From positions 150,037 to 214,036 of the forward strand of contig JAXDML010000010.1 of the NCBI GenBank assembly GCA_034666125.1: a DNA stretch of 64,000 bases, in the 5' to 3' direction. The notes beneath the pieces are model-generated. The model was not told the origin of the DNA, did no database searches, and saw only the letters and a list, made by a program, of their open reading frames with translations. Of the stretch, positions 37,306-52,852 are shown in pieces. Positions within the stretch are counted from its first letter, which is position 1. Each line of letters begins with the position of its first letter. The stretch is from Candidatus Parcubacteria bacterium (GTDB lineage: Bacteria > Patescibacteriota > Minisyncoccia > Phycocordibacterales > Phycocordibacteraceae). Both the position numbers and the translations under genes were made by a program.

Positions 37306-37345
37306 TCCGAGAGCAGAGAAAGGGAAGAGGAGAAAGCAGGATAAC

Positions 37346-37372
37346 GCAAAAACGCCCCGAGGGGCGTTTTTG
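37346..37372 (+). terminator. Rho-independent terminator after the LOG gene
   Basis: AAAAACGCCCC-gag-GGGCGTTTTTGC. Confidence 0.7.
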
Positions 37373-37624
37373 CTGATAGCCGGTTGATGTCTCATCCCGA
37401 TCGCGCCGGAGAGGGTTTACCGCATCTCTCCCGAAGGTTCGATGCAGGACCGGACTCCAACACTCGCTTACAAGACCCGGTTCTCAATCGATAGGCTGCT
37501 TTTGGCCGAAGCCTCGAACAGTTATCTACCGACCCTGCCCGAGGCCGAAGCCAAGGGCTAAGTTCGAGTATCGCGCCTGCCGCAAAACCCGGCAACTGTG
37601 GATACTGTTTATAAGGTGGGGACA

Positions 37625-37690
37625 AAAAATATAATAGGGAAAAGCCGTTTCTTCAACGCGGCTTGATATCCCAGGTTTGAAGAAGCGGCT
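37625..37690 (-). terminator. Long hairpin terminator downstream of the minus-strand gene 37692..37922
   Basis: AGCCGTTTCTTCAA...TTGAAGAAGCGGCT: a 13-bp stem with one mismatch. On the minus strand it is followed by TTTTCCCTATTATATTTTTTG. Confidence 0.5.
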
Positions 37691-37691
37691 T

Positions 37692-37922
37692 TCAACTCAG
37701 CCCGGGGATGTGCAGGTCCCCCTCCACGAAGAGCCAGAAAATGAGCCCGGCGACGACGACGATCAGCGATGTCTCGGGCCATGGCAACCCTATCCAATGG
37801 CAGATCAGCGCGATGAGGGCCAGAAGGATTAGTCCCCAGATGGTCGGGCCTAGACTGTTACCCCTCAACATGATGATCAGCGTCCAGATTGCGCACAACG
37901 CAAAGGGCAGGTACTGGGTCAC
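37692..37922 (-). CDS. Small membrane protein (2 TM)
   Basis: 76 aa, hydrophobic. Confidence 0.35.
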   Translation of the reverse strand: MTQYLPFALCAIWTLIIMLRGNSLGPTIWGLILLALIALICHWIGLPWPETSLIVVVAGLIFWLFVEGDLHIPGLS

Positions 37923-38118
37923 GGTGACCTCCTTTCGTTTCAGTACCCTATGACTGTACGACTTACAAAGTAGAGAGTCAATAGAGAAGAGAATCGTATC
38001 AAAAGGAAAAAACTATCACATTCAACAGGGAGGCAAAGAAGACGGATGGCCGTTTTCCTTACAATGGCGACACGTGACCATAGGCATGTCGAGTGGCGGG
38101 GAAAGGCCCGAACCGTAT

Positions 38119-38292
38119 TTATATCTGAGGCGGAGTCTTCTTCTTGCTCTTCACTACGCTGACGATGCCGATAATTACCACTACGAGTCCGAGCAACTGC
38201 GCTCCGGGACTATCATCGATTCCGCCGTATACGAACATGAATGCTCCGAAAGCTATCGCGAGAATGGAACATAGCAACCTTCCTTTATTCAT
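38119..38292 (-). CDS. Small membrane protein (57 aa, 2 TM), not in the supplied ORF track
   Basis: Manual translation: MNKGRLLCSILAIAFGAFMFVYGGIDDSPGAQLLGLVVVIIGIVSVVKSKKKTPPQI. Confidence 0.3.
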   Translation of the reverse strand: MNKGRLLCSILAIAFGAFMFVYGGIDDSPGAQLLGLVVVIIGIVSVVKSKKKTPPQI

Positions 38293-38433
38293 ATAAAGAT
38301 CCTACCAAATGGGGAAATAAAAGAAAAAGGGCCCGGTATTTACTCCGGGACAGGGAAGTATACAAAAGGAAAAGGCCATCTGGGGGGAGACGACCGATTC
38401 CTTTGGTCCTCTCCCGGCTGATGGCCTTGGGCG

Positions 38434-38676
38434 TCAGTCCTCCTTGGTCGACGCCGCCGCTTCGAGCCGCTGCGCCACGTGCTCGATGTAGAGCAGGATG
38501 GCGCAGAGCATGAAGCCCAGTGTGATGACGACGAGCACCGCACCCCCGCCGATCTTGATGAAGCTCTGGTTCGGCGACGCCAGGACGATGGTGGCGAAGA
38601 AGGCGAAGATCAGCGCCATGACGACGTAGGTCGCGCTATCTTTGGCACCCCTGGCAATTCTTTCCGACTTGGACAT
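38434..38676 (-). CDS. Small membrane protein (2 TM)
   Basis: 80 aa, with an N-terminal charged segment then two TM helices. Confidence 0.4.
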   Translation of the reverse strand: MSKSERIARGAKDSATYVVMALIFAFFATIVLASPNQSFIKIGGGAVLVVITLGFMLCAILLYIEHVAQRLEAAASTKED

Positions 38677-38773
38677 CTTTCTCTCCTTGAAACATCAGTG
38701 GATTCATAGGCAGATTGGCACATATAGCCTACTTTTGTCAATCCAGCAGGGAAGTCAGATCTATACTGGAGGG

Positions 38774-38947
38774 ATGGAGAGAAAATGCGATGGGTGCGGA
38801 AATGAGATGCGTAGGATCGGTTCTTTTGCTCGAACAAAACGAGAAGGAGAGCGCTCATTCAAGAGCGACGGCTCGGTGCAATACCAGTGTATCAACGAAG
38901 TTTGCTCTGAGTACGAGAAAGTAGTGACGATTCAGCCGGGGGAGTAA
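38774..38947 (+). CDS. Small zinc-ribbon protein
   Basis: MERKCDGCGNEM...CINEVCSEYEK: two CxxC pairs. It sits at the beginning of the low-GC island. Confidence 0.35.
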   Translation: MERKCDGCGNEMRRIGSFARTKREGERSFKSDGSVQYQCINEVCSEYEKVVTIQPGE

Positions 38948-39517
38948 CCGGGTTGCGCGAAGTGGGGTTAATTCTTTGTTTCTAGAAGAGGGCATAGACT
39001 TGGACGACTCAAAGAAGTCTTGAGGAAAACTTGAGAACCTCTTCTGTAGGGTAGGGGAGTCCCCGGCACTTAGATCGGGGACGTGAGTAACTGCAGATTA
39101 CCGCTATGACGAAGGTAAAAGCGTGGCATTCGGCCAGGGAGACTGACCGTCAGGTATACCACGACAACGATGCGTGCACAGAAGGGAACAACATTGAAGA
39201 GAAGTACCGCCGGGAAGGTACTGACAATCGTCCTCAATGTGACCACTGTAGACGCCTCAGTTAAGGGTTTGTAGCGGAGTCTGCCCGGACGTAGCATCCC
39301 TGATACTTCTTCGGGAGGTCTGGGTGATCGCTCCTCTGGCACTCCCCGTGCAACCAGAACCATCGTCCCGTCTTGTCTTCGTCGGCAGCCGGGACGATGG
39401 TCTTTTGTATTACTGAGAGCTCGTAGTGAAGTCCGTCGTGTATGTAGGTGTCATCCTCTTCGGCCTCCGTCTTAGCCGCGCAGTAGATTTGACCGTTTTT
39501 TCGTATCCGTAGAGCCA

Positions 39518-39541
39518 TAGGGTAGGGAAGTCAGGTATAAT
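39518..39541 (+). promoter_or_regulatory. Island promoter motif copy 1: TAGGGTAGGGAAG-N5-TATAAT, followed by an ORF-free structured region
   Basis: Direct read. Nothing codes for >1 kb downstream. Confidence 0.45.
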
Positions 39542-39762
39542 GGGGGTGTAAGGTCAAGTCGAGCAAAGTTTAGTAAAGTCGAGTTAAGCAGATGAACTAT
39601 GGGCCTCGTGCCCTGCCCTCGCTTGCGAGGAAAAAGAGACCTTAGACCTGGGAACCTAGATCAGTAACATGGCTCCGCGCTCCAAAAGTCCACGCGCGTG
39701 GCAGGGAAGAGTTCGTTTGTCGTTACTGACCTAATCACTCCCAGGTCTAAACTCTATTTAAG

Positions 39763-39844
39763 TACAACGCACAATATCTGGATCAAATATTTCTGTCTTT
39801 TGTCAAGGCTTTGGGGCTCATTATTGAAAAGTGGGGAGACCCTT
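39763..39844 (+). repeat. 82-bp direct repeat, copy A (partner at 42953..43035)
   Basis: ACAACGCACAATATCTGGATCAAATATTTCTGTCTTTTGTCAAGGCTTTGGGGCTCATTATTGAAAAGTGGGGAGACCCTTA. Differs from copy B by 1 substitution and 1 indel. Confidence 0.9.
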
Positions 39845-40109
39845 AGAACGATCTAGGGGAGGCTCGGCAAGAAGAGAAATATGTTGTAGTTTGGACGCGA
39901 AAATCGTCCACAAGTTGTCCACTTAGGGTCGCGCTTGCGTCAAAATAGCCTCGGGTTAGGATACTTGGAGGAGAGTGGTTACCTTCCTTTTCCACTCCTC
40001 TGAAACGGTCAGTCCGGCCTTTTTATCAGACAACTACTAGCTCGCGGGCTCTAAATCCCAGAAAGGGGTTATTTTTCGTCCTTGTGCGTTCAGAACTTTG
40101 AAAACTTGA

Positions 40110-40214
40110 GTATTGAAGTGTGCCCCGACCGGGAATCGAACCCGGATCATTTCCTGAGAGAGGGAACGCCCTTTCGGGTGGAGTTTTCTAGACTCTTGCT
40201 CTATCCATTGAGCT
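40110..40214 (-). tRNA. tRNA-like gene with a ~34-nt insertion between anticodon stem and T-arm (apparent anticodon AGA); possible intron-containing or degenerate tRNA
   Basis: On the minus strand: perfect 7-bp acceptor (GCCCCGA/TCGGGGC), canonical D-arm (GCTC-AATGGATA-GAGC), anticodon stem-loop AGAGT-CTAGAAA-ACTCC, and a perfect T-arm (CCGGG-TTCGATT-CCCGG). A 34-nt segment with two hairpins (CCC-GAAA-GGG and TTCC...GGAA) sits where the 4-5 nt variable loop should be. Confidence 0.45.
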
Positions 40215-40909
40215 ATCGGGGCACGCTTCAGTACTCAAGATGCTTATGAGATGGGCAGTAGGTCGAAACCTTTTCGGCACACTGCCCAGCCCGTAAGGAC
40301 TGGGTAAATCTCTGGCGAGATTTAGGAAAGGGATCGGGTATTACCTGGTCCTTTTTCCGTTATCATTTCGCTCGCGGATGGTAGTGTCGGGGAACTTGTC
40401 GTTCACCCATTCACGGACATACCTTCCGGTCTTGGCGCTGCGATAAGAGTAGGGAATAAGCCTAGTCGTTAGTCGCGTCTAAACACCCGCATTGTCACTG
40501 CGGGGCCACTTTTCTCGGGAGACCGACCTCCGTCGCCTGCCGCTACGTATCGGCGGGGTATAGTGAGAAACGACACTTGTATCCGATACAAATAGAACCC
40601 ATCCCGACATCTGGCGTAGGCGCTCTCCCTTTCGGGTATCACGCCATACTGGCGAGTGGTCTCTTGAAACCTACGCCAGATGTCGAAACAGGTTCTCTGT
40701 TTCGGGAGAGCATATGAGGGGGACCAACCCCTGTTTATGAAAGTACCGCCCAGCGATTGAGCGTAGCTTTAGTATAACCGAACCGCGCCAAGCTCGTCTT
40801 GGGGATAGGGGTCGCTCCGAAACAGTCCGGCTATAAGGCAAGGGCAAATTGAGCGCTCCTTCTTGGTCCAGGTATTGTGCGATACAGCGATATAAACCGA
40901 GAAGGGAAG

Positions 40910-41125
40910 TTAACCTTTCAGTTTCTTCAGAGCGGCCTTCATGATTTTCTTACGTCCTTCACTCGGGCTGATCTCACGTGCCGCTTCGAAAAGGGCTTCT
41001 TTAGAGGCTTTCTTGGTCGCTTCCGCGAGCTTCGCCAGTTGCTTCACCGCGAAGTCAACCTCCCACTTCTGCTTAAAGGCTATAAGGTTGCGGTCTTCTT
41101 TCACTTTCTTTGGGTCGTCGGCCAT
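40910..41125 (-). CDS. Small basic lysine-rich protein (module 1)
   Basis: 71 aa, MADDPKKVKEDRNLIAFKQKW.. Preceded on its strand by the conserved CAGAGTCCGTATTTGGC motif and TATACT immediately before the ATG. Confidence 0.4.
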   Translation of the reverse strand: MADDPKKVKEDRNLIAFKQKWEVDFAVKQLAKLAEATKKASKEALFEAAREISPSEGRKKIMKAALKKLKG

Positions 41126-41142
41126 AAGTATAGAGTTACTAA

Positions 41143-41177
41143 TACCCCTTAACCCTATCAGAGTCCGTATTTGGCGG
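41143..41177. repeat. Island repeat family 2, copy 1 (CTAYCAGAGTCCGTATTTGGC-GGGGAGGG)
   Basis: Direct read. Partner at 44046..44080. Confidence 0.8.
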
Positions 41178-41189
41178 GGGAGGGTAGTC

Positions 41190-41567
41190 CTACTTTCCCT
41201 GAAGCTTCTTGAGCTCTTTAGTGAGCTTTTCTATCTGTTTCAGGAGCTCGTCGATTCGCTTCTGGTTCTTAGAGACGGCGGGACCGTTCGCCTTACACTC
41301 GCCCCCTTTGGTTAGGTAGTAGCCTGCGTTGCAACTGAACTTACAAGTGCTTTTGGCGGTTATGAGAACGGTCGCGTTCTTGGGAGCACTCTTCGTACAG
41401 GCTTTGAGGGCCTTGTTCTCGCAAGATCTGAGCTCGATCTTCTGACTCGCGGTCGGATTCGGTCCGAACGAAGTACGCATCGATGCGCAGCTGGAAGTGT
41501 TAAATGCCGCGTGTGCAGGCACCGACAAAAGAAATACAGCAATTAGCCCTATAAGGGTCTTTTTCAT
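41190..41567 (-). CDS. Secreted Cys-rich protein with C-terminal coiled-coil (paralog of 44659..45027)
   Basis: Signal peptide MKKTLIGLIAVFLLSVPAHAA, 10 Cys, and a C-terminal KRIDELLKQIEKLTKELKKLQGK. Confidence 0.5.
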   Translation of the reverse strand: MKKTLIGLIAVFLLSVPAHAAFNTSSCASMRTSFGPNPTASQKIELRSCENKALKACTKSAPKNATVLITAKSTCKFSCNAGYYLTKGGECKANGPAVSKNQKRIDELLKQIEKLTKELKKLQGK

Positions 41568-41736
41568 AGTGGAAGGTTTAAGTGTCTAAACGGTGCACCG
41601 CCCGAGGGTATCCCGGAAACCTTCCACGGAAACCGGGACCTGAACTCAGCCGGTGCATTGGTGGAAGGTTATATGTGGCCCTCTAGGGTACTGAACCTCA
41701 GTATACAACGGCTCCTTTTGAGGAAACAACGGGTCG

Positions 41737-41760
41737 TGGGGTAGGGGAGGCCTTATACTT
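41737..41760 (+). promoter_or_regulatory. Island promoter motif copy 2: TGGGGTAGGGGAG-N5-TATACT, 5 nt before the ATG at 41766
   Basis: Direct read. Confidence 0.45.
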
Positions 41761-41765
41761 TGGGG

Positions 41766-42614
41766 ATGGTCGATTTCCTATATAACTGGCAGACCCTGCT
41801 GGGCTCTTTGCTGGGAGCAGGCGTCCCATTGTCTTTACTGCTCGTCGGTAGGTTTTATTTTCAGAGACGGGATCACTTACGATCTCTGCATAAATTTGTG
41901 CTCCTTGCGAGCAATAACCTGATTGAGATAGATAGAACCGTTAGGGAGTTCAGGGACATTCGTATCGAGAAGCTCCTCTCAGACCTGGCGCGGGACCTGG
42001 AGGCGAACGAACCAAAATTCGTGGTGCCAATGGCGTATTTTCCACTTCAATCAGTCTTACGTTTACCAGACGACCTAATTAATCAGTCCACTGAAAGTGG
42101 GTATGTTGACACATGGGGACTCGAAGTTCTCTCGAAGTCCCGCGATCTTGAGAAGATAATGGACGACCTCCAGAGACAGTTCGAAGCGACTCTGGCTATG
42201 AATAAGGAATTAACTTTCTTGCTGTCGAATAAAATTGACGAAAAGGATAGAGAAGCCGCCCTAAGGCATTCGAGAGGCCTTATTTCCAGTCTGCGCCAAC
42301 AAATTACAGATTACGCAATCGTTCTCGAAAGAGACTTCTTTGGAAAGAACGTGCCTATCTATCTAAAGAGTCTCGCCACAACGTTGGCGGTCATAGATGA
42401 ATACAACCGAATTGGTTATATGTCTTGGAAATGGAAGTTCCGGATAGGCTTTAAGTGCTACAGAAATAAGGAATCGTATTTGCATGCAAAGGCCAACATC
42501 ATGAAAAAGATCGATCTTTACCTAAAAGAGAAAGTAGACGCAAAAATTGCCAGTACATTAGAACTGCTTACGCAGAGTCAATCGACATCTGTAGTGGTCC
42601 GTCAGGAGAGCTGA
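41766..42614 (+). CDS. Hypothetical protein with N-terminal TM helix
   Basis: The ORF as called starts at TTG 41760; first ATG at 41766 (MVDFLYNWQTLLGSLLGAGVPLSLLLVG..). Helical, with no family recognised. Confidence 0.5.
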   Translation: MVDFLYNWQTLLGSLLGAGVPLSLLLVGRFYFQRRDHLRSLHKFVLLASNNLIEIDRTVREFRDIRIEKLLSDLARDLEANEPKFVVPMAYFPLQSVLRLPDDLINQSTESGYVDTWGLEVLSKSRDLEKIMDDLQRQFEATLAMNKELTFLLSNKIDEKDREAALRHSRGLISSLRQQITDYAIVLERDFFGKNVPIYLKSLATTLAVIDEYNRIGYMSWKWKFRIGFKCYRNKESYLHAKANIMKKIDLYLKEKVDAKIASTLELLTQSQSTSVVVRQES

Positions 42615-42952
42615 TAGTCCAAATAGTGCTCGGGTAATGTCTGACCAAAAGGGCAGGGGAGTCAGCCTTAGACACCCCTAAAGGCTGATCTTCTTCTTTT
42701 TTGTTCATAGGGTAGGGAAGTCAGGGTGTGAGCCCTGAAAAGCCAGCCTGATTTTGCTACTATTCTCGTGGGGTAGGGAGACAAGTCCCTACCCCAGTCA
42801 GTTACGGCCATAGAGGGGACCCAGATTCATGGACATCCTCGAACTGATCCTTATCTACCTGATTCTTAAAAAGATCCTGTAGAGAAGGGAGTACGGACCG
42901 CGTTACAAGCGCGGTTTCTGCTTTCGGGCTGGCTTTTGAAGGTTCAAATCAA

Positions 42953-43035
42953 ACAACGCACAATATCTGGAACAAATATTTCTGTCTTTTGTCAAGGCTT
43001 TGGGGCTCATTATTGAAAAGTGGGGAAGACCCTTA
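42953..43035 (+). repeat. 83-bp direct repeat, copy B; overlaps the 5' end of ORF 43000..43530
   Basis: Near-identical to 39763..39844. Confidence 0.9.
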
Positions 43036-43530
43036 AAGCAATTCGAAGCAGCCTCGCCGAAAACAGAAGTGTGTTCTAGTTTGACGCATCTTCAGCGAAG
43101 ATTTAGGCTTAATGTTACAAACTTGAAGAACACCAAGAAAAAGAAGGTCCGGACAAGACCACATACCCGTACTGATGTGATTTCAGACACGGAAAGGCTG
43201 GAGATCCACTACTGGACCTTAGGAAGTAGGGTGACTAGATTTGCTGTTTGCTACTGCTGCGAGATCGACGGGGAATGGGTGAGTATCACTTGGTGTGATG
43301 ACGCGCATCTCGAAAAAGGAAGGTATGTCGGCAAAGGCCGAAAAGGGCATTGCCACAGTTTCTCGGCCCAGGGTGGCAAACTTGTAGAAAACGAGTATCT
43401 TTTAGGTCTGGGGACTCCGGCTGAGCATCTGACTGAGGTTCTGAATAATTTCAAGAAGAATCACGAGCAAATACGGGCTCAGTATATGAAGGCTGTGGAG
43501 AAAGCCGCTAGACAGGCAAAGAATAGGTAA
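43000..43530 (+). CDS. Hypothetical Cys/His-rich protein (start uncertain; ORF as called begins at TTG inside the repeat)
   Basis: VCYCCEIDGEWVSITWCDDAHLEKGRYVGKGRKGHCHSF suggests metal binding. The lysine-rich N-terminus may not be translated. Confidence 0.4.
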   Translation: MGLIIEKWGRPLKQFEAASPKTEVCSSLTHLQRRFRLNVTNLKNTKKKKVRTRPHTRTDVISDTERLEIHYWTLGSRVTRFAVCYCCEIDGEWVSITWCDDAHLEKGRYVGKGRKGHCHSFSAQGGKLVENEYLLGLGTPAEHLTEVLNNFKKNHEQIRAQYMKAVEKAARQAKNR

Positions 43531-43540
43531 GAATATAGAT

Positions 43541-43801
43541 ATGGCTGCTACTAACAAAAGGATCGTAAGAAAGAATCTGACCTGCTCAGTGGCTTTTAAC
43601 GAATACTTAATCAAGAACTCTGGTAAGAGAATCCTGCCTAATGGAGCAACCGTAGTTTTTAGTGATACGAGAGACGCCGCCTTTTCGGCTGCGAATAGAT
43701 TACTTTGTAATAGCATAGTCAGAAGTGGGGAAAGTTGCTACATAGCAGAAAAAAGCGGCAGGTCTTGGAATGTAGATAGAATATCTCCGGTCAGCAGATA
43801 G
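43541..43801 (+). CDS. Hypothetical protein
   Basis: 86 aa with no motifs. Confidence 0.3.
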   Translation: MAATNKRIVRKNLTCSVAFNEYLIKNSGKRILPNGATVVFSDTRDAAFSAANRLLCNSIVRSGESCYIAEKSGRSWNVDRISPVSR

Positions 43802-43860
43802 AGGTAGTTGTCTAAACAGAAAAGCCGCCCTACGGCGGTTCTTTTCTTGGAGGAGGGGAG

Positions 43861-44013
43861 TTACTTCTTCCCGCGAGGCTTGTTGGCTGCGTTATCAAGA
43901 GCAACTGCCGCTAACGTCTTCACTTGGGCACTTGTTGGCTTGATCGCACCACTGAGAACCTTCGAAGCCAGGGTCGCATTCTTCGAGGAGGTCACGTCAT
44001 CTTTCTTTGCCAT
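43861..44013 (-). CDS. Small basic lysine-rich protein (module 2; 50 aa, not in ORF track)
   Basis: Manual translation MAKKDDVTSSKNATLASKVLSGAIKPTSAQVKTLAAVALDNAANKPRGKK. Preceded by repeat family 2, copy 2. Confidence 0.3.
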   Translation of the reverse strand: MAKKDDVTSSKNATLASKVLSGAIKPTSAQVKTLAAVALDNAANKPRGKK

Positions 44014-44045
44014 AACTGTAGTGGTTAACTAATAATCTCCTATAA

Positions 44046-44080
44046 CTCTACCAGAGTCCGTATTTGGCCAGGGGAGGGGA
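44046..44080. repeat. Island repeat family 2, copy 2
   Basis: CTACCAGAGTCCGTATTTGGCCAGGGGAGGGG. Confidence 0.8.
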
Positions 44081-44089
44081 TAACGGGAG

Positions 44090-44674
44090 TTAGTCGTCTC
44101 CAATCCTCCCGGCAGTTAATCTGCTTAACTCTGCCTTCCATTTCGCCCGGGCAGCTGCATTGGCTGATACTGTGACCGATATATCGCTTGGTATCGGGTC
44201 GGCATCCATCTTCTGTATTTCGGGGTTCGAGATCCTCTCGCTAAGAGGCGAGTAACTGCTCAGTAACTCGTTTGTGCCGAGGTTCTGTATGAAGTAACTT
44301 GTCTCAGTAATCCAACTGCGCTCCCCAGTACTCATCACTTGGAACGAGTCTTCTGTAGTGCTGTATCCGCCCACACACTCTTTGAGTTCAGGACTGAACC
44401 CGACAAGGAAACTACTCATGTCCATACGAACGACCATTCTCTCTGGGTACCCGTTTGTTATGGCTTTCTGGCTATAGAAGTCCTGGATCCCAGCCGTACG
44501 CTCACGGAATGCGTCTAGTTTCTGAGAACAGTCTTTCGAGTCGGCACTGCCTAACGTCTTTGGAGTCGAACTGCCAATGGCGTAAACCGTAATTGCAAAA
44601 ATCAAGAGGACGACACACGCGCCCAGGGCGAATCCCTCAAAGGAGATTTTCCTCATAGCTAGAAGGAGCCACAA
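44090..44674 (-). CDS. Membrane-anchored/secreted hypothetical protein
   Basis: Probable start at MRKISFEGFALGACVVLLIFAITVYA (signal anchor). No family. Confidence 0.45.
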   Translation of the reverse strand: MWLLLAMRKISFEGFALGACVVLLIFAITVYAIGSSTPKTLGSADSKDCSQKLDAFRERTAGIQDFYSQKAITNGYPERMVVRMDMSSFLVGFSPELKECVGGYSTTEDSFQVMSTGERSWITETSYFIQNLGTNELLSSYSPLSERISNPEIQKMDADPIPSDISVTVSANAAARAKWKAELSRLTAGRIGDD

Positions 44675-45027
44675 GCCTGTACCATACCGTTAGATAGGTA
44701 GCTGCATACGGACGTCTGGGTCCCCAATTGCTTGTCGATCTCCTGTATCTCTTTCGCCGCAGCGTTCCTCTGCTGTGCGGTTACCTTCATATTCCGGTTC
44801 AGTTTGACGAGCTCCGCTTTGCGCCGCTCAAGCTTCTCAGTCTTAGCCGAGGTCTTAACTGGGGTCTTTTTGTCGATCTGAACGACCGACCTTCCTTCAA
44901 GAGCAGAGACACGTTTCTCAAGGGCCAGGAGCCTTGAAGCGAGAGAACCGATAGAGTCAGGGGCTGCGTACGTGAAGGCGGGCACGATCAGGACGCCCAG
45001 AACGAAGCCCGCAAGGGTCTTTTTCAT
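44659..45027 (-). CDS. Secreted coiled-coil protein with C-terminal Cys pair (paralog of 41190..41567, domains in the opposite order)
   Basis: Start at MKKTLAGFVLGVLIVPAFTYA (signal peptide), coiled-coil LASRLLALEKRVSALEGR.., and C-terminal ..VCSYLSNGMVQACGSF. The upstream extension of the ORF as called is rejected. Confidence 0.45.
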   Translation of the reverse strand: MKKTLAGFVLGVLIVPAFTYAAPDSIGSLASRLLALEKRVSALEGRSVVQIDKKTPVKTSAKTEKLERRKAELVKLNRNMKVTAQQRNAAAKEIQEIDKQLGTQTSVCSYLSNGMVQACGSF

Positions 45028-45260
45028 AGGGAAGTTTGCGTGAGGTTTCGTGGAATAAACGCACCGCCCAAGGATGGAATCTCCGAGCAAACTTCCCAGA
45101 AAGCCGGAGACCCCAAGGAACTTGGGCGGTGCGGTCGGGAAGTTTGCTGCTATGGGTGGTGTCACTACCACGATACAACAGGGCAGACCCCTTGTAAATA
45201 CTAGCCTGGGGACACATTTCACGTCCCTAAAGTTTTTCTAAAGGCGTTATCAACTGGAAA

Positions 45261-45284
45261 TAGGGCAGGGAAGTGTGGTATAAT
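45261..45284 (+). promoter_or_regulatory. Island promoter motif copy 3: TAGGGCAGGGAAG-N5-TATAAT, 8 nt before the ATG at 45293
   Basis: Direct read. Confidence 0.45.
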
Positions 45285-45292
45285 GCAGAAGC

Positions 45293-45538
45293 ATGGACTT
45301 GAATAAACAAGAGAAAACCATGGCTGACGTGATACTCGTGTCCTACAATCCAGCGTTTTTCATGCTTGGAATGCAGCACGGGGAATCAGTCTCGGTGTAC
45401 ACCACTACCCCAGAAGGGGCTAAGGCGTTCGCCGAGAACCTTACGAAGCGTGTGGCTGAGTACGAATCCACGATACGTAAGATTGATTCCTCGGGTCTAC
45501 AGTTAGGGACCGTGTCACCGATCCAGCCTCGCAAATAA
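45293..45538 (+). CDS. Hypothetical protein
   Basis: 81 aa with no motifs. Confidence 0.35.
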   Translation: MDLNKQEKTMADVILVSYNPAFFMLGMQHGESVSVYTTTPEGAKAFAENLTKRVAEYESTIRKIDSSGLQLGTVSPIQPRK

Positions 45539-45640
45539 AGCTTTTTGTTCCTGTTACTTTAGAGAGTCCTTCTTTCATATTTCTACATCGCACAATATCT
45601 GTTTTGCGTAATACAAATACGTAAAGCACGCAAAGGCAGA

Positions 45641-45826
45641 TTAGGACTTTGCCCTTGGAGAGAGACTCTCAAGTAGTTTAGTGACTTGACTTACCATCTG
45701 TTCAACGACTGAACGCTTCATATGGAAGCTTGTAACGCGTCCTTGTTTGTTATGAAGATGAAGAAGTATCTCATCTTCAGCCTCCCTAACGTCCATTTTG
45801 ATATCTATGATAGGCAAGTTTTCCAT
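45641..45826 (-). CDS. Hypothetical small protein
   Basis: 61 aa. Confidence 0.25.
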   Translation of the reverse strand: MENLPIIDIKMDVREAEDEILLHLHNKQGRVTSFHMKRSVVEQMVSQVTKLLESLSPRAKS

Positions 45827-45995
45827 AGATCCATTATACTCGTTTATCCGAGATATGGCTCACTTATTGGTTTCTTTAGTACCAAGACCTACTCAACTTA
45901 TATGAAGAGCTGTGCGGGTCTTGAAGACTGCCAATAGGTGTTGGACTTCCGGTGAAGAATGAGACTAGTTTCTGAAGATTCCAAGGCTCCAGCTA

Positions 45996-46607
45996 TCAAG
46001 TAAGGGGTTGCGACTCCCCTACCTTCAAATTTGGAAGGAATGTGTTGAAAATAGAAAGCCTAAAACTATCTGAGAAATGCTTCCATTCTTCCATTAAGGA
46101 TCGGAGAGTCTCGAAGCCCGCTTTTATAAGAAGCTGGTCTCTCTCGTCGTCAGGATTCTTGCCACCGTGAAAGAGGTTATTTCGTATTGAATGCCAGAAC
46201 TCAATCATATTTCTCCAGTCTTCCAGATTACGAATCCTTCCCTGTTGGTCACAAAAATGACTTTCCTGGTCCTGTACGTTCTGACAGTCACAATCCCAGT
46301 ACCAGATCGCATGAACATCGTCCGTATTTTTGTCGAGCTCGCCCAAGGGACGTTCATCCAGCTCATTTTTAATAGACTGCCAAGACTGCTGAAGATGGTT
46401 ATCCCTAGCAACTAAGTCAAGGTACATATTTCGCACCTCTGCATCGTATTTAAGAGCTCGAATTGCGCTTGAGTCTGTCACTCTGTTTGTAAACTTAATT
46501 CGCTTCAAATATGCAATAAATGCCAGGTACTCGAAAACATACTTTGAAAAGTAGTCCTCACTACCGGCCTGGGCGTGCCAACTTCTTATTAATTGTTCGA
46601 AGTCCAT
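45996..46607 (-). CDS. Hypothetical protein with HEPN-type Rx4H motif (candidate RNase), third gene of a compact 3-gene operon
   Basis: WHSIRNNLFHGGK contains R-N-x3-H, as in HEPN catalytic motifs. 203 aa, helical. Starts 9 nt after the stop of the 4-TM gene. Confidence 0.45.
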   Translation of the reverse strand: MDFEQLIRSWHAQAGSEDYFSKYVFEYLAFIAYLKRIKFTNRVTDSSAIRALKYDAEVRNMYLDLVARDNHLQQSWQSIKNELDERPLGELDKNTDDVHAIWYWDCDCQNVQDQESHFCDQQGRIRNLEDWRNMIEFWHSIRNNLFHGGKNPDDERDQLLIKAGFETLRSLMEEWKHFSDSFRLSIFNTFLPNLKVGESQPLT

Positions 46608-46616
46608 TAGCAGTCT

Positions 46617-47066
46617 CTACTTAATTGATAGGTTAAAGATTCTCCTTGTAATCCAAATACAGCGTCCAGTTTTTATAATAACTAAAAAAACAATGGCCAA
46701 GAACATGAACATTTCTACCTTCGGAGATGCGTCTATGTTTAGTACCTCTCTTAGGATCAGAATAATAACTCCAAAGGATATCCAAAAAAGTGCGTTTACA
46801 ATTATATCCATTACAGTTCGAAACGACTTTGTCTTTTTGAAATAAACTAATTTTTCACTGTCGTTAAAAGAGAAAATTATAGCCATGAAAGCCATAACAA
46901 ACCCCAAGAGTCCAATCAGTGACTCAGTCATATTAAGTAAAAACTCGTTGCTTAACGAGGAAGACAAATTGAAACGGAATAAGAAATACGTTATTCCACC
47001 CGCGCATAGAAAAGTGAGTAAGGTATCTATAGGCTGAAAGAATTTTTGATACCAATTCTTTAACAT
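46617..47066 (-). CDS. Small 4-TM membrane protein (middle gene of the 3-gene operon)
   Basis: 149 aa with four hydrophobic helices. ~33% GC. Starts 3 nt after the stop of the upstream 306-aa gene. Confidence 0.55.
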   Translation of the reverse strand: MLKNWYQKFFQPIDTLLTFLCAGGITYFLFRFNLSSSLSNEFLLNMTESLIGLLGFVMAFMAIIFSFNDSEKLVYFKKTKSFRTVMDIIVNALFWISFGVIILILREVLNIDASPKVEMFMFLAIVFLVIIKTGRCIWITRRIFNLSIK

Positions 47067-47069
47067 ATT

Positions 47070-47990
47070 TTATTCACCTATAATACTTAGAAGATCGCCC
47101 CGCTTCTTTTTGTAGGCAGCGCAGATATTTTCGAACATATCTTTCGGGTCAACTTCTCGAGCGTTGTTTAATTTAGTAGTTCTAACTTCGTACACCATTT
47201 TGTCTTTGAGGAGGTCAAAGTCTTGAATTTTTTGTGTCTGAGAGTCCCAGGCTTTGATATTAAAACGATCAAATTGCTCACCGGGGTAGAAACGTCCCAC
47301 ATACCCCTTTAAGTTTTTAAGGAATGTCTTTCGTTCAGTGCCCTTAAGAATCGGCTTCCTGCCGTTCTTTTTTGGTCTTAGTACTAGTTCGATTTCTTCC
47401 AAATCTCCAAAGGAAGACGCAGTCCTGAGGGATGAATAAAGATTCGAGTCCAGATTTTTTATACTGTCGACGTGATTCTTATGTACCATTAGGGAGATTG
47501 ATGTAATATCTCCCATTCTACTAATTTGTCGGAGCGCGTCCTTATTAAATAGAATATTAAAGTATAAGAAAAGTGGATTCTTTACTCCAATATTTACGTT
47601 CTCCATCTTTTCGTTCAGATACTTAGCAAGTGTGCCAATGCGCGGTCCATAAAAGTTATATTCCATAGCTACGATGCCCTTCTCAGGGAAATACACAAAG
47701 TGTGTAGGTATGACCAGACCCTCGCTATCTTTAAGTTTTAGGGGATGAACTTTTGTGTCGTCAACCGACGCGACAGAAGGAAAGTCACTACCTCTCCATT
47801 CGTATAAACTTCCGTAAATTACCCCCTTGCCCGTGTCTTTTACGGTGCAGAATATCTTTCTGTCCCTCTCTCTTTCCCAGAAGATATCTTTTTGATCCAG
47901 TGAACTTAATTCTTTAACAACGTCAACAAAAGTGCCGTTCATAACAGCCGATCGGTAGAAGTAGACCTGTCGCACAACAGTTTCCTTCAT
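47070..47990 (-). CDS. Hypothetical 306-aa cytoplasmic protein (first gene of the 3-gene operon), unknown function
   Basis: No TM and no confidently recognisable catalytic motif. A weak GS..DD nucleotidyltransferase-like pattern (YGSLYEWRGSDFPSVASVDD) does not fit the canonical spacing. Lowest GC in the window. Confidence 0.5.
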   Translation of the reverse strand: MKETVVRQVYFYRSAVMNGTFVDVVKELSSLDQKDIFWERERDRKIFCTVKDTGKGVIYGSLYEWRGSDFPSVASVDDTKVHPLKLKDSEGLVIPTHFVYFPEKGIVAMEYNFYGPRIGTLAKYLNEKMENVNIGVKNPLFLYFNILFNKDALRQISRMGDITSISLMVHKNHVDSIKNLDSNLYSSLRTASSFGDLEEIELVLRPKKNGRKPILKGTERKTFLKNLKGYVGRFYPGEQFDRFNIKAWDSQTQKIQDFDLLKDKMVYEVRTTKLNNAREVDPKDMFENICAAYKKKRGDLLSIIGE

Positions 47991-48315
47991 GAGGCCTTCA
48001 TTTTACCACCAGGGTGAATCTTGTACAGACGGACCCAATGTCAAGCCTTTAAAAGGCTTGTGAGCTCCTTTCGCTTTGATAGAAACTTTGCTTCTATATT
48101 TCCGTGACTGATTTCAAAACACGTTAGGATCTACTTGACCTAAACTAGGCTGTTTGGCCTGGCGTGGTCTAAAAACGCGACAAACATAGAAAACCCGTCA
48201 TCAGGGCGTTTGTCGCGTTATAGGGGTAAACTCCTATAGGGGCTTCGGCCCTACTGGTGGCGGGTTTTGTGTTTGCCCACCTCCCCGCCCCGTCTTACTT
48301 CCCTAGTAAACGAAC

Positions 48316-48798
48316 ATGGCACAAGAAACTACTGTTACTGAAGACACTAAGGTCTGTCCGAAATGTGCGACAAATATCCCCAAGCAAGCAATACGCTGCC
48401 CTAACTGTAGGAGCAAGATAGGAACCTCGAGACTTGGAAAGCTTCTTGCGATCTTCTTCGGGCTCTTCATTGTCATGATGGTCATCTCAGTTCAAAGTGC
48501 CACCCCTACCCCACGAGTCCCTGGACCTGAGACGGAACCGGGCTGGGCTGACTCTGCCGCAGGAAAACTTTGTTCCAAGCACCCTGACTGGCAACCGGAA
48601 GAATGCGTTAAGGTTGCTGGAAAGAAGATCTGGATCGGTATGGACTACGATATGCTCGTATATCAATACGGAAAGCCAGATTCTATAAACCCTTCTAACT
48701 ATGGAGGCGGAACAAGATACCAATACTGTTGGCATGATTACTCCCCTTCTTGCTTTTATGACGAGAATGGGGATAACAAGATAGACGCTTATAACTAA
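48316..48798 (+). CDS. Zinc-ribbon / TM / extracytoplasmic domain protein
   Basis: CPKC...CPNC zinc ribbon, one TM (LLAIFFGLFIVMMVISV), and a C-terminal Cys-containing domain. Confidence 0.5.
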   Translation: MAQETTVTEDTKVCPKCATNIPKQAIRCPNCRSKIGTSRLGKLLAIFFGLFIVMMVISVQSATPTPRVPGPETEPGWADSAAGKLCSKHPDWQPEECVKVAGKKIWIGMDYDMLVYQYGKPDSINPSNYGGGTRYQYCWHDYSPSCFYDENGDNKIDAYN

Positions 48799-49368: not shown

Positions 49369-50004
49369 TCACTTGTTTATCTCAAGGAAGATTGTCGCAA
49401 GCAAGTCCATCATGGTGGCAGCCGTAGGTTTAGACTCGGGAGTTTCGGATGCACACGCATTATCTGCCCACAGTCCCTCCTTATTCACTCGTGCTGTTGT
49501 CTCTGCCTCTTTAAACTGAGCCTGGTATTTGTACGGTAAGTTGTATGTATATTCCTGGGCAAACCCTTCCTGGATCATCTTTAAATTAAGGTTAGATCCG
49601 TTTTCAAGAAAAATATATCCAAGTCTCCTATTGTATTTGTCGTAGGTACCCTGGGATGGGTCTGTCTCGACATACACTTTTGCGTCAGTAAGGAGCGCCT
49701 TGGCTCGATTAGAGGCCTCGCGACCAAAACACTCGACCGCTTGAGTTGGATGAACTGTTTCAGGAGTATCTATACCAATGAGTCGGAATGTCTGAACTTC
49801 GTTATCTATGCGAATTTTTACCGTATCTCCATCTACGACGTCAACAACAGAGTAGAGACTGCTAGGTGCTTGGAAGCCTTCCTCAACAGATTGAGTTTGT
49901 TTCGCTACTTCCCCTCCCGATCTATCTGTAAGAAATAGTAAGCCCCCACCAACAAAAAGGATGCCAATGCAACATGCTGTTAATTTTTTGAGAGCCGCAC
50001 TCAT
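49369..50004 (-). CDS. Secreted thermonuclease (staphylococcal nuclease/SNase family)
   Basis: Signal anchor; SNase motifs VVDGDTVKI, FRLIGIDTPE, RRLGYIF, GLW. Confidence 0.75.
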   Translation of the reverse strand: MSAALKKLTACCIGILFVGGGLLFLTDRSGGEVAKQTQSVEEGFQAPSSLYSVVDVVDGDTVKIRIDNEVQTFRLIGIDTPETVHPTQAVECFGREASNRAKALLTDAKVYVETDPSQGTYDKYNRRLGYIFLENGSNLNLKMIQEGFAQEYTYNLPYKYQAQFKEAETTARVNKEGLWADNACASETPESKPTAATMMDLLATIFLEINK

Positions 50005-50019
50005 TCCTAGAGTATATCT

Positions 50020-51015
50020 CTAGGGCGTGTGATTCATGGGTAACCGAAATTCACCCATATCCTCCCCTATCTGATACTGAGTGGCAGAAATAACCTTTAA
50101 GTCCCCCAAATCGAGCATTTTGTGATGGTTAGGACATAGCACGAGCATATTTGATGGGAGGTCTGCACCAGGAAGTCGTTTGGCAATTGGCACAATGTGG
50201 GCTACTTCAGAATAAAGGTTTCCGCTTCTCTGTCTGAAGGTAAATCCACAAATTTGGCATTCGTTTTTATACTTCTCCTTCATCCGACGAACGAGAGATA
50301 CGTTGCGCTTAATAACGGTCACCTTCCTGGCTACAGATTCAGGCACGTCATCCGCATGACGTTGCTGCCATTCGAGTAGCAGTGAATCCTCTTCCTTATC
50401 TCGTGTAAGCGCGTCGACCTCCGCGAGTTCACTTGCAGTGAGGTCTTCCTTCCCACTAATACTATCGAGCAAAGCCACGTCTTTTGCCTTAAGTCCAGGA
50501 GAGTATGCGTCGAAGAATGAATCTAGACTTCCGTAAGTTGCATAGATCCTGTCCAAAGCACCTTCACGTAGACTTACGAAACCCTGAACAACCATCTTGT
50601 CGTCATAGGCTCCTAATTCGCGGATAATCTCAAGAGGAAGCTGAATTGGCCGAAGTTCGTCGAGAAAGAATAGGTATTCCCAGGTTTCTTCTTTTTGCGG
50701 GATATTGCCCCACAGAGCTCTCGCGATCTCGGCGCTCTGCTTTTTCAATATACATTTACCCGTATACACAAAAACTCCTTTTGCGTAAAAAAGAACACTG
50801 TCACCCGGTTGCATTTGATCCCAATAGAAGCGCCTCCCTTCTCCACTTCCCCATATATAAAGCTGGTCTTGTACACCCAGAGCCTGCTCTTCCTCGGTCG
50901 AGAGATATTGATGTATATGGTCACGTGGGTAACCGCTGGCAAGCGTTGCAATAAAGTTTGCCTGCGATGTTTCGTTGCTCCGAGGAGCCAGGTATATCTT
51001 TGGACGTTCAGCCAT
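50020..51015 (-). CDS. HNH endonuclease with N-terminal PUA-like (EVE/ASCH-type) domain, candidate modification-dependent nuclease
   Basis: Start at MAERPKIY. HNH: CQICGFTF..SEVAHIVPIA..N.LVLCPNHHKMLD. N-terminal GDSVLFYAKGVFVYTGK-type PUA-like pattern (fold assignment is inference). Confidence 0.65.
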   Translation of the reverse strand: MAERPKIYLAPRSNETSQANFIATLASGYPRDHIHQYLSTEEEQALGVQDQLYIWGSGEGRRFYWDQMQPGDSVLFYAKGVFVYTGKCILKKQSAEIARALWGNIPQKEETWEYLFFLDELRPIQLPLEIIRELGAYDDKMVVQGFVSLREGALDRIYATYGSLDSFFDAYSPGLKAKDVALLDSISGKEDLTASELAEVDALTRDKEEDSLLLEWQQRHADDVPESVARKVTVIKRNVSLVRRMKEKYKNECQICGFTFRQRSGNLYSEVAHIVPIAKRLPGADLPSNMLVLCPNHHKMLDLGDLKVISATQYQIGEDMGEFRLPMNHTP

Positions 51016-51116
51016 ATTTCCTTGCACAAAGGCTACGCCTGAACCGTAGTATGTCAATCGCCGCTGATTTGAGACAATCTTAAAAACAAAAAGATCACAT
51101 AGCGCGGACACCAACT

Positions 51117-51387: not shown

Positions 51388-52137
51388 TCACGCGGCCTTC
51401 GAGATCTCCTCGATGGTTCGCATGGCGGCGTCGTAGGGGTCCTTGGCATGGACGATCGGACGGCCGACCACGATGCGATCGGCACCGGCGGCGATGGCCT
51501 GGGCCGGGGTCATGATCCGGTTCCGGTTCTGGTCGCCCGGGTCGAGTGCCCAGATCGGCCGGATCGCCGGGGTATTGATGGTCATCGCGTTGCCGACGAG
51601 CTGCCGCAGCATTGCGGCTTCGGCACCGGAGGCGATCAAACCGTCAACGCCCGCTTCCTTGGCCATCTCCGCGAATTCGGCGACCGCCTGCTCGGTCAGT
51701 TCGCGGCGATACATCCTCGTCACGTCCCTGTCCTCGAGGCCGGTCAGGACCGTCACGCCGAGCACCTCCGTGTCCGGCAGAAGGGCCTTCAGAGCCGCCA
51801 TCCCCTTCACACCGGAGCCGCACATGACCGTGAGCAGGTCAGGACCGGCCTCGCGCAGGAATATGGCGTCGGTCTCGAGGGTCTCGCGGATGTCGCAGAG
51901 CTTCAGGTCCGCGAACACCCTGAGGCCGCGTTCGCGAAGCTCGCCGATCACACCATAGCCGAAAGCCCGGAGCGGCGCGTTCACTTTGAACGTGACGCCG
52001 GTTCTCCCGAGGCAGTCGGCAAGTGCGAGGACCTGCCGGTAAGCGACGGCGACTCCGTCGGGGCCCTCGGGCCTGAAGTCCGCCGCGACGATCAGGCGTT
52101 GTGCCGGCTCCAATGCCGGTCTCCCGTCCTTGCGCAT
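51388..52137 (-). CDS. pyrF: Orotidine 5'-phosphate decarboxylase
   Basis: Start at MRKDGRPALEPAQRLIVAADF. Conserved FKVN, FADLKLCDI, and IVGRPI motifs. The N-terminal extension of ORF 51388..52293 is rejected. Confidence 0.85.
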   Translation of the reverse strand: MRKDGRPALEPAQRLIVAADFRPEGPDGVAVAYRQVLALADCLGRTGVTFKVNAPLRAFGYGVIGELRERGLRVFADLKLCDIRETLETDAIFLREAGPDLLTVMCGSGVKGMAALKALLPDTEVLGVTVLTGLEDRDVTRMYRRELTEQAVAEFAEMAKEAGVDGLIASGAEAAMLRQLVGNAMTINTPAIRPIWALDPGDQNRNRIMTPAQAIAAGADRIVVGRPIVHAKDPYDAAMRTIEEISKAA

Positions 52138-52168
52138 TTCGTACCGTTCCTTTCTCGGCCGGTGGCCG

Positions 52169-52852
52169 TCAATCGTAATGGGCGTTGAGGCGGCCCCAAT
52201 TCTCCGCAGATTCCTTCGGCCGAATGGCCTCCGAGCCCTGCGCGCACAACGGGCATTCCTCGGCCGCCCAGATCGGCAGATGCCGGGTGACAAGCGCGAT
52301 AATCTTGCGCCCGTCGACTTCCTCGAGGCCCGACCGGTTCACCAGGACCGCGACGTAGGGCAGGAGATCGCCCAAAGCGCCCGTAATGGCCGTAGCCGCA
52401 CGGTTGACGCTCCCGCCGGTCGTGATCACGTCTTCGCACAGAAGAACGCTGTCGCCGTAGATCGCCTTGGCCTCGTCCTGGCTGAAGACCATGGTCCGCT
52501 CCTCGCCTTCCCCGCTTTTGGCTGGCGAGGACCAGGAGCAGCCGAGCTCGTGGGCGATGAGCTCTGCCAGGTCCGTGGCCCCGGTCTGGGGGCCGACGAC
52601 CCGGTCGATGAGGCAAAGGATTTCGCCCCGACCATCGATGAGCTCGACGAGGTCCTGGGCGGCCAGGTTGAGGAGCGGCTTATCTTCGATGACCAGCTTG
52701 CTGTTGAAGAAGCCGTTCGAATGCTGTCCCGAAGTCAGAAGCGCGTGAGGACGGCGCGGATTGCCGTCGTGGATCCAAAGCGCACCCAGATCCTGGTAGG
52801 CTCGAAGCCACCCGTTCTCGTCTCTATGCATTTCCCTTCCTTCTCGTTTCAA
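52169..52852 (-). CDS. pyrE: Orotate phosphoribosyltransferase
   Basis: PRPP-binding motif VLLCEDVITTGGS and the OPRTase N-terminal pattern. Confidence 0.85.
   Translation of the reverse strand: MKREGREMHRDENGWLRAYQDLGALWIHDGNPRRPHALLTSGQHSNGFFNSKLVIEDKPLLNLAAQDLVELIDGRGEILCLIDRVVGPQTGATDLAELIAHELGCSWSSPAKSGEGEERTMVFSQDEAKAIYGDSVLLCEDVITTGGSVNRAATAITGALGDLLPYVAVLVNRSGLEEVDGRKIIALVTRHLPIWAAEECPLCAQGSEAIRPKESAENWGRLNAHYD

Follow-up and report, generated by a model that had tools for sequence, protein, structure and literature searches.

The window considered here is a stretch of 64,000 nucleotides from the 252,821-bp contig JAXDML010000010.1 (positions 150,037 to 214,036 of the forward strand), part of a metagenome-assembled genome (MAG) labelled Candidatus Parcubacteria bacterium. 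It contains three adjacent genes on the minus strand, here denoted A, B and C (Table 1), all of which are annotated as "hypothetical" in the NCBI annotation of the source MAG. The locus very probably consists of two independent adjacent defence modules, namely a RexAB-type pair (genes A and B) and a stand-alone member of the HEPN superfamily (gene C). The pair A-B is best described as a distant relative of lambda RexA/RexB, with C as a separate gene, and not as part of a new three-part system. A sequence-only reading of the same DNA had proposed the latter, an undescribed three-gene defence system; the three minus-strand open reading frames (ORFs) on which it was built are exactly where it had placed them.

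The assignment of gene A is carried by its predicted structure. The AlphaFold2 model of the protein, obtained from a 14-sequence alignment (predicted local distance difference test, pLDDT, 82.1; predicted template modelling score, pTM, 0.69), was compared with the whole PDB using Foldseek. Lambda RexA (8TWQ) takes ranks 1 and 2 (E = 8.7e-9 and 1.3e-7, probability 1.00), RdgC follows in third place (4.8e-5), and all other matches have E >= 0.018. The runners-up (RdgC, IML3, CENP-N, CHL4 and 3oh8) are those listed in the paper on the RexA structure (PMC11077077). In the predicted structure, A has the two-domain fold of RexA, i.e. a globular domain that is split, together with a dimerisation domain, homologous to RdgC; the sequence identity between A and RexA is about 12 %.

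At the level of sequence, close homologs of A (pI 9.2) are scarce, with 14 clusters among 5.8 billion proteins. An exhaustive profile search extends these to a family of proteins of about 300 aa with 1,150 representatives at E <= 1e-3, of which 607 remain at E <= 1e-10, where family size (~1,150) is counted as clusters at 50 % identity. A profile of 60 sequences from this family aligns with the single lambda RexA sequence over 185 colinear columns (hhalign E = 4.7e-5, 68 % probability), and the most conserved block of the family, EYNFYGPRI, is thereby placed on ARTVFGPTT of RexA. The corresponding comparison with a 7-sequence profile is not significant, and searches of PDB sequences with the single sequence or shallow profiles return nothing useful; the link between A and RexA is seen only by structure comparison and with the deep profile. 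Gene A itself matches two PADLOC models, both weakly (RexA, 3.6e-4; PDC-M67A, 9.7e-6). Its seven closest homologs all match PADLOC RexA as well as PDC-M67A (best 1.4e-7 for the latter), four of the seven match Pfam RexA (best 1.7e-5) and three match DUF6731, a domain that is also found in 25 of 60 sampled members of the wider family (best 3.3e-16). Matches in PHROGs are confined to two families of unknown function, both near full length, and no useful match is found in NCBIfam.

Gene B encodes a small protein whose hydropathy profile resembles that of lambda RexB. Its hydrophobic segments lie at about residues 14-32 (weak), 49-67, 87-105 and 119-137, those of RexB (144 aa) at 8-26, 49-67, 84-102 and 116-134. 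Segment 1 is just below the hydropathy threshold in the window protein and above it in all homologs, hence the four-helix membrane protein described earlier is recovered with all four segments among the homologs and with three segments passing the threshold in B itself. A basic loop after the second hydrophobic segment is common to B and RexB, and a C-terminal RCxW motif of B is conserved. The PADLOC RexB model is matched by two of ten B-type partners (best 1.3e-8), which offers a transitive sequence link between B and RexB. The B profile in turn matches eight of the nine non-window partners tested from genome and metagenome loci at E <= 1e-12, as well as all six partners on viral contigs (E from 1.8e-8 to 7e-39). 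By analogy with the lambda proteins, A is predicted to be a DNA-binding sensor and activator, and B a membrane-permeabilising effector.

The association of both genes is not restricted to the window. All 18 other loci examined have, directly after an A-type gene, a gene for a protein of 142-160 aa whose four hydrophobic segments are positioned like those of RexB. The 18 comprise 12 genome or metagenome loci, whose identity to the window A ranges from 100 % down to about 21-25 %, and six IMG/VR viral contigs; two Firmicutes prophages are among them. The B-type partner is present in 12/12 and 6/6 of these loci, respectively, at a distance of -14 to +21 nt, mostly 1-3 nt. The A-B pair shows strict synteny even among distant relatives, and phages or prophages are frequent carriers of it. 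For example, the pair occurs together with terminase, N6/N4-methyltransferase and large serine recombinase genes in three loci (L001, L002 and L005), in the tail and holin-amidase regions of Bacillus prophages in two (L014 and L016), and in a defence island with a serine recombinase, Fic and a type I restriction-modification (R-M) system in another (L089).

The third-ranking structural match and the recurrent partner bear on a different reading, according to which A is a DNA-binding protein of the RdgC type that associates with the nucleoid or modulates recombination and serves in housekeeping or in the phage lifecycle, B is a membrane protein without functional relation to it, and no abortive infection takes place. 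RexA without RexB can bias the lysis-lysogeny switch, which is an example of such a role. RdgC is preceded by RexA in the structural ranking, and a B-type gene accompanies A in every locus examined; we regard this reading as very unlikely.

The location of the pair beside holin and amidase genes in the two Firmicutes prophages would also suit a lysis cassette, in which B serves as a prophage holin, antiholin or superinfection-exclusion protein and A as its regulator, so that the pair would act in lysis timing and not in defence. B is indeed small and contains multiple transmembrane segments, as holins do. However, both prophages already possess a canonical holin (Phage_holin_4_1) and an endolysin beside the pair, which is the typical position of a moron, most other A-B loci have no lysis genes nearby, and two B partners match the RexB model. 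A role confined to lysis is therefore highly improbable.

Several observations weigh against the relation of A and B to RexA and RexB. Gene A has no Pfam match at E <= 0.1, RexA (PF15969) included, and an hmmsearch with the A-family profiles against PDB sequences does not recover RexA. The global TM-scores between the A model and 8TWQ amount to 0.33-0.37 only, a value that we attribute to a different orientation of the two domains in the model, since the structure in the crystal is reported to be a 'closed' state. The homology of A and RexA is hence suggested by structure prediction in combination with weak hidden Markov model and profile matches. For B, the window protein matches neither Pfam nor PADLOC, a direct comparison with lambda RexB yields no significant similarity (hhalign E = 0.05 and 0.11), and its putative topology is read from hydropathy only. 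As to genomic context, the ORFs scanned in the low-GC island around the locus (38-51 kb) include no recognisable phage structural, repressor or integrase gene, and the pair is not located beside a cI-like repressor, as it is in lambda. In addition, the spacing of 9 nt between B and C would be compatible with a functional link between the pair and C in this one lineage.

Gene C was linked to HEPN proteins on account of the motif IRNNLFHGGK, which is present as described. Its residues R142, N143, N144, F146 and H147 do not vary among 40 diverse homologs (43-68 % identity). HEPN domains are characterised by an Rx4-6H motif in which a polar residue follows the arginine, by the location of this motif where core helix 3 ends, and by an insert between helices 2 and 3 (PMC3710099). 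C contains an Rx4-6H motif, including the polar residue directly after R. In its AlphaFold2 model (pLDDT 85.7; pTM 0.80), the helix 131-146 ends in the motif and is followed by a loop and a long last helix (155-190), and a long non-helical insert (86-130) precedes helix 131-146. Both the position of the motif (end of helix 3/loop to helix 4) and the insert correspond to the HEPN arrangement. The structure was compared against the PDB only. The invariant motif together with its position and the architecture of the model led us to classify C as HEPN-like: a HEPN-like fold is suggested by the model, and a function as ribonuclease (RNase) is probable by analogy. A point against the assignment is that no HEPN family occurs among the Pfam matches of C and its 40 homologs at E <= 1. 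C likewise matches no NCBIfam or PADLOC model and no sequence in the PDB. The family comprises at least 227 clusters of proteins of about 180 aa that match residues 1-173 of C. The last ~30 residues of C are a locus-specific extension beyond the family, modelled with low confidence.

The genomic distribution of the C family differs from that of the pair. A scan with one genome per species yields 69 C-family loci from the candidate phyla radiation (CPR), DPANN and other archaea, Proteobacteria, Bacteroidota, Acidobacteriota and others, and an A- or B-like ORF is found within +/- 5 kb in none of the 69. The upstream neighbour of C is an N6_Mtase/HsdM gene in 10 of the 33 full-length loci, and the downstream neighbour is HsdS in 9 of 32; these hsdM and hsdS genes often abut or overlap C, followed by hsdR. 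Other neighbours of the family include GmrSD, DUF2326, AAA_13, an SLFN-like helicase and Zeta toxin. In the window, no R-M genes are associated with C. We conclude that C is a separate single-gene cassette outside the conserved A-B module.

Genes upstream of C homologs were considered as A-like candidates and rejected: one (L009) is the tail of hsdM, another (L011) encodes an unrelated protein of 286 aa. In the latter contig (L011, 4120..5534) and on a Candidatus Kaiserbacteria chromosome (L017, OY969413.1), a conserved ribosomal-protein operon is interrupted between rplE and rpsN by the C-family gene, the unannotated 286-aa gene and an rve-type transposase. A further observation concerns the defence island mentioned above (L089, 6375..9702), where the type I R-M operon beside A-B holds an unannotated gene of 225 aa between hsdM and hsdS. 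This gene is not C-like, as it has neither a match to the C profile nor an Rx4-6H motif. It seems that various small genes have repeatedly landed at the hsdM-hsdS junction.

Taken together, these distributions decide on the proposal that A, B and C form one integrated, undescribed abortive-infection system in which a sensor is combined with two effectors, one acting on the membrane and the other an RNase. The three genes share a strand, are separated by gaps of 3 nt and 9 nt without a convincing terminator between them, and all residues of the C motif are intact. The identical arrangement is also present on a contig from the Joint Genome Institute (JGI; L007), yet this contig carries the same sequence and is not an independent lineage. 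A C-like gene is found in none of the 18 other A-B loci, where the gene 3' of B differs in every lineage, the C-family loci lack A- and B-like genes, C has a recurrent context of its own (hsdM-C-hsdS), and the homology of A to RexA implies that two of the three parts are of already described kinds. An integrated system is thus quite unlikely. The sequence-only reading had named beforehand two findings that would count against it, and both were made: A is related to a component of a known system, as judged from AlphaFold and Foldseek, and the three-gene arrangement is not conserved elsewhere, A-B occurring alone in 18/18 loci and C alone in 69. The claim of an undescribed system therefore falls. 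What survives is the interpretation as a defence-related, horizontally acquired locus, and with it the logic of a cytoplasmic sensor, a small membrane effector and an Rx4H HEPN protein.

The mechanism we propose for the two modules is drawn by analogy from characterised systems. As suggested by lambda RexAB and by RexABpp of the Pseudomonas putida prophage P1 (PMC11077077, PMC12894663), a dimer of A would bind DNA non-specifically. It would sense an infection-associated nucleoprotein state and then activate B, which may oligomerise to form a channel or pore. The membrane would become depolarised or leaky, ATP would drop, and growth would stop before the phage cycle ends, resulting in abortive infection. 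C would act as a metal-independent RNase that stays latent until defence is breached, similar to PrrC with EcoprrI (PMC3710099). In the window, C appears to have landed 9 nt after B and not inside an R-M operon, and its action is probably independent of A-B.

A bolder alternative holds that a RexAB-type pair has captured a HEPN RNase to form a composite system, and that the C family is a broad class of R-M-guarding RNases without an ATPase. We consider this unlikely. If true, keeping the HEPN RNase latent would fall to the RexA-like sensor or the RexB-like protein instead of to HsdM/HsdS, and infection would free the RNase, giving a two-effector abortive response directed at membrane and RNA. 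Separately, the C family would constitute a new R-M-guarding class in CPR, DPANN and many other phyla.

Returning to two separate modules, the features of the locus are collected in Table 1. The gaps amount to 3 nt between A and B and 9 nt between B and C, confirming earlier figures. The GC content is 40.4 % in A, 33.3 % in B, 43.1 % in C and 40.8 % in the whole span, compared with a background of 60.5 % in the window outside the low-GC island. The span had been described as the lowest in GC with 33-38 % against 62 %; the numbers shift to 33.3-43.1 % against 60.5 %, and the ranking holds, just 7 of 617 sliding windows being lower and each of them overlapping the span. Four terminator-like sites are detected in the region, which is no excess over shuffled sequence (2.3 +/- 1.6 expected), and the scan of the region places none of them at the A/B or B/C junction. 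Co-transcription of A, B and C is plausible.

Table 1. Genes and other features annotated at the A-B-C locus and in its surroundings (coordinates refer to the window).
Feature	Position	Strand	Basis and remarks
Gene A, RexA-like predicted cytoplasmic protein	47070..47990	-	ORF, 306 aa
Gene B, RexB-like small membrane protein (predicted)	46617..47066	-	ORF, 149 aa
Gene C, HEPN-like protein (predicted)	45996..46607	-	ORF, 203 aa
LOOT RNA, Rfam RF03000	48137..48252	+	70.2 bits vs gathering score 46.4, E 2.2e-12, full model 1-121
Sigma-70-like promoter consensus match	48000..48027	-	TGTACA-16-TAAAAT with TG; upstream of A; consensus-level, weak
tRNA-like gene, 102 nt	40121..40222	-	Rfam tRNA model, 56.7 bits; no detection by ARAGORN

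The span sits in a larger low-GC island at about 38.0-51.2 kb with 47.0 % GC. An independently assembled JGI metagenome contig (Ga0467041_0001359, L007; 11.1 kb) is identical to the window at ~37344..48451, and its left end falls almost exactly on the GC drop that marks the left edge of the island. This suggests either that the island is a discrete element or that the position is an assembly breakpoint. Direct repeats that could serve as attachment (att) sites were found neither at the ends of the island nor at the tRNA-like gene, all repeats being internal, and the window likewise yielded no integrase. One of these is a direct repeat of 74 nt (99 % identical) at 39764 and 42953, the latter copy overlapping the start of a DUF7718 ORF (43000..43530). 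The short motif TAGGGTAGGGAAGTCAG occurs in 4-6 copies within 38700..45300 of the window, often with TTTTGT before it. The internal repeats of the island may represent promoters or operators that a mobile element carries in several copies. The tRNA-like gene has ~30 extra nt following the anticodon arm, perhaps a long variable arm or else an insertion. On two of the A-B contigs (L001 and L003), a tRNA lies directly after B.

The same island also holds genes for an SNase-family nuclease and an HNH protein (49369..51114, minus strand), on the same strand and 16 nt apart. Both neighbours had been reported before and are real; for the second, formerly called PUA-HNH, only HNH domains are matched and the PUA part is unconfirmed. 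The SNase-family protein matches the PADLOC model C3a212 'SNc+LTD' (E = 4.6e-46), and the HNH protein shows weak matches to type IV methyl-directed and phosphorothioate-dependent restriction enzymes. The two genes may constitute another defence module. Further along, the ORF at 51388..52293 presumably encodes an orotidine monophosphate decarboxylase-like protein, judging by its translation. Such an enzyme and a background GC of ~60 % are unusual in Parcubacteria, and the taxonomic label of the MAG or the binning of the contig may deserve a check.

The spacer upstream of A measures 325 bp and contains three hairpins, as noted earlier. The hairpins CGCGACAAAC...GTTTGTCGCG and GGGC-UUCG-GCCC are helices of a LOOT RNA (Table 1), located 146 bp upstream of A on the opposite strand and divergent from the operon. 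Since they are part of a plus-strand RNA, they do not form a leader of A-B-C, and the former interpretation as an upstream leader is lost for two of the three. The promoter match lies between LOOT and the start codon of A; with four promoter-like sites in the region versus 5.8 +/- 2.7 by chance, it is not significant alone. A second copy of LOOT is found on one of the A-B contigs (L001, 1296..1427, plus strand; 73.3 bits), 4.2 kb from A-B and beside a large serine recombinase. On each of the two contigs, 63 nt separate LOOT from the start of a downstream ORF. We considered LOOT as a 5' leader of a conserved downstream gene and dismissed it, as the two downstream ORFs are unrelated. No description of LOOT was found in the main text of its discovery paper or in the supplements consulted. 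LOOT may be carried as cargo by one family of mobile elements or phages and does not look like a regulator of A-B-C.

With respect to significance, we note that RexAB is the oldest known phage-exclusion system, that its mechanism is unresolved, and that few divergent members have been recognised. A family of ~1,150 clusters, part of which is annotated as DUF6731, is here tied to RexA by predicted structure, with a RexB-like partner in the loci examined. The range of RexAB-type modules thereby comes to include a genome labelled Candidatus Parcubacteria, Firmicutes prophages and several uncultured lineages, the last represented mostly by metagenomic contigs of unassigned origin. The PADLOC models used would probably miss the locus, with a weak match for A and none for B, and the locus is therefore useful for improving such models. 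C defines an unannotated HEPN-like family found between hsdM and hsdS and is a candidate for a minimal PrrC-style 'R-M guard' RNase. A-B and C each belong to known kinds, their juxtaposition is lineage-specific, and the value of the finding is incremental.

Compared with known systems, A, B and C match no PADLOC model at E <= 0.1 other than RexA and PDC-M67A, and hence neither Kiwa nor CBASS nor any other named system. The similarity to PDC-M67 is confined to A and is partial (residues 94-173 against 104-181 of the 329 positions of the PDC-M67A model); no match to a PDC-M67 model at E <= 1 is obtained with B or its relatives. DUF6731 is matched by part of the A family, whereas the window A itself has no Pfam match. 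No paper mentioning PDC-M67 or DUF6731 was found.

Gene C resembles the R-M-embedded HEPN RNases in that its family is typically found inside type I R-M operons. It differs from PrrC and RloC by the absence of an ABC-ATPase domain, and from the HEPN families in general in that it matches no curated one. The position within the operon also differs from that of PrrC, as prrC lies between hsdS and hsdR, whereas members of the C family lie between hsdM and hsdS. With PrrC/EcoprrI, Abi2/AbiD/AbiF and ApeA (PMC3710099), C shares the Rx4H motif, a helical bundle according to the model, and an insert before the motif helix.

The closest counterpart of the pair is lambda RexA/RexB, where a cytoplasmic protein of ~300 aa is likewise followed by a protein of ~145 aa with four hydrophobic segments. 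The gap between the genes is 15 nt in lambda and 3 nt in the window. In structure and synteny the pair shows the features on which the field has relied when assigning systems to the RexAB type. The two-domain fold of RexA (8TWQ), the top PDB match of A, is shared according to the model, B is of similar size to RexB and has its hydrophobic segments at similar places, and relatives of the window pair are, like lambda rexAB, carried by phages or prophages. The window pair differs in its host, which is labelled Candidatus Parcubacteria and is uncultured and not an enterobacterium, in the absence of a neighbouring cI-like repressor, and in the HEPN-like gene that follows B. RexABpp of the P. putida prophage P1 (PP_5643/PP_5644; PMC12894663) offers a second comparison. 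It is located downstream of a CI-like repressor, unlike the window locus. As with A and B, its assignment to the RexAB type draws on remote homology and structure of the A component and on a partner with four transmembrane segments and no detectable homology to RexB, a likeness that concerns the kind of evidence alone. For RexABpp, both defence against phages and damage to membranes have been demonstrated experimentally (PMC12894663).

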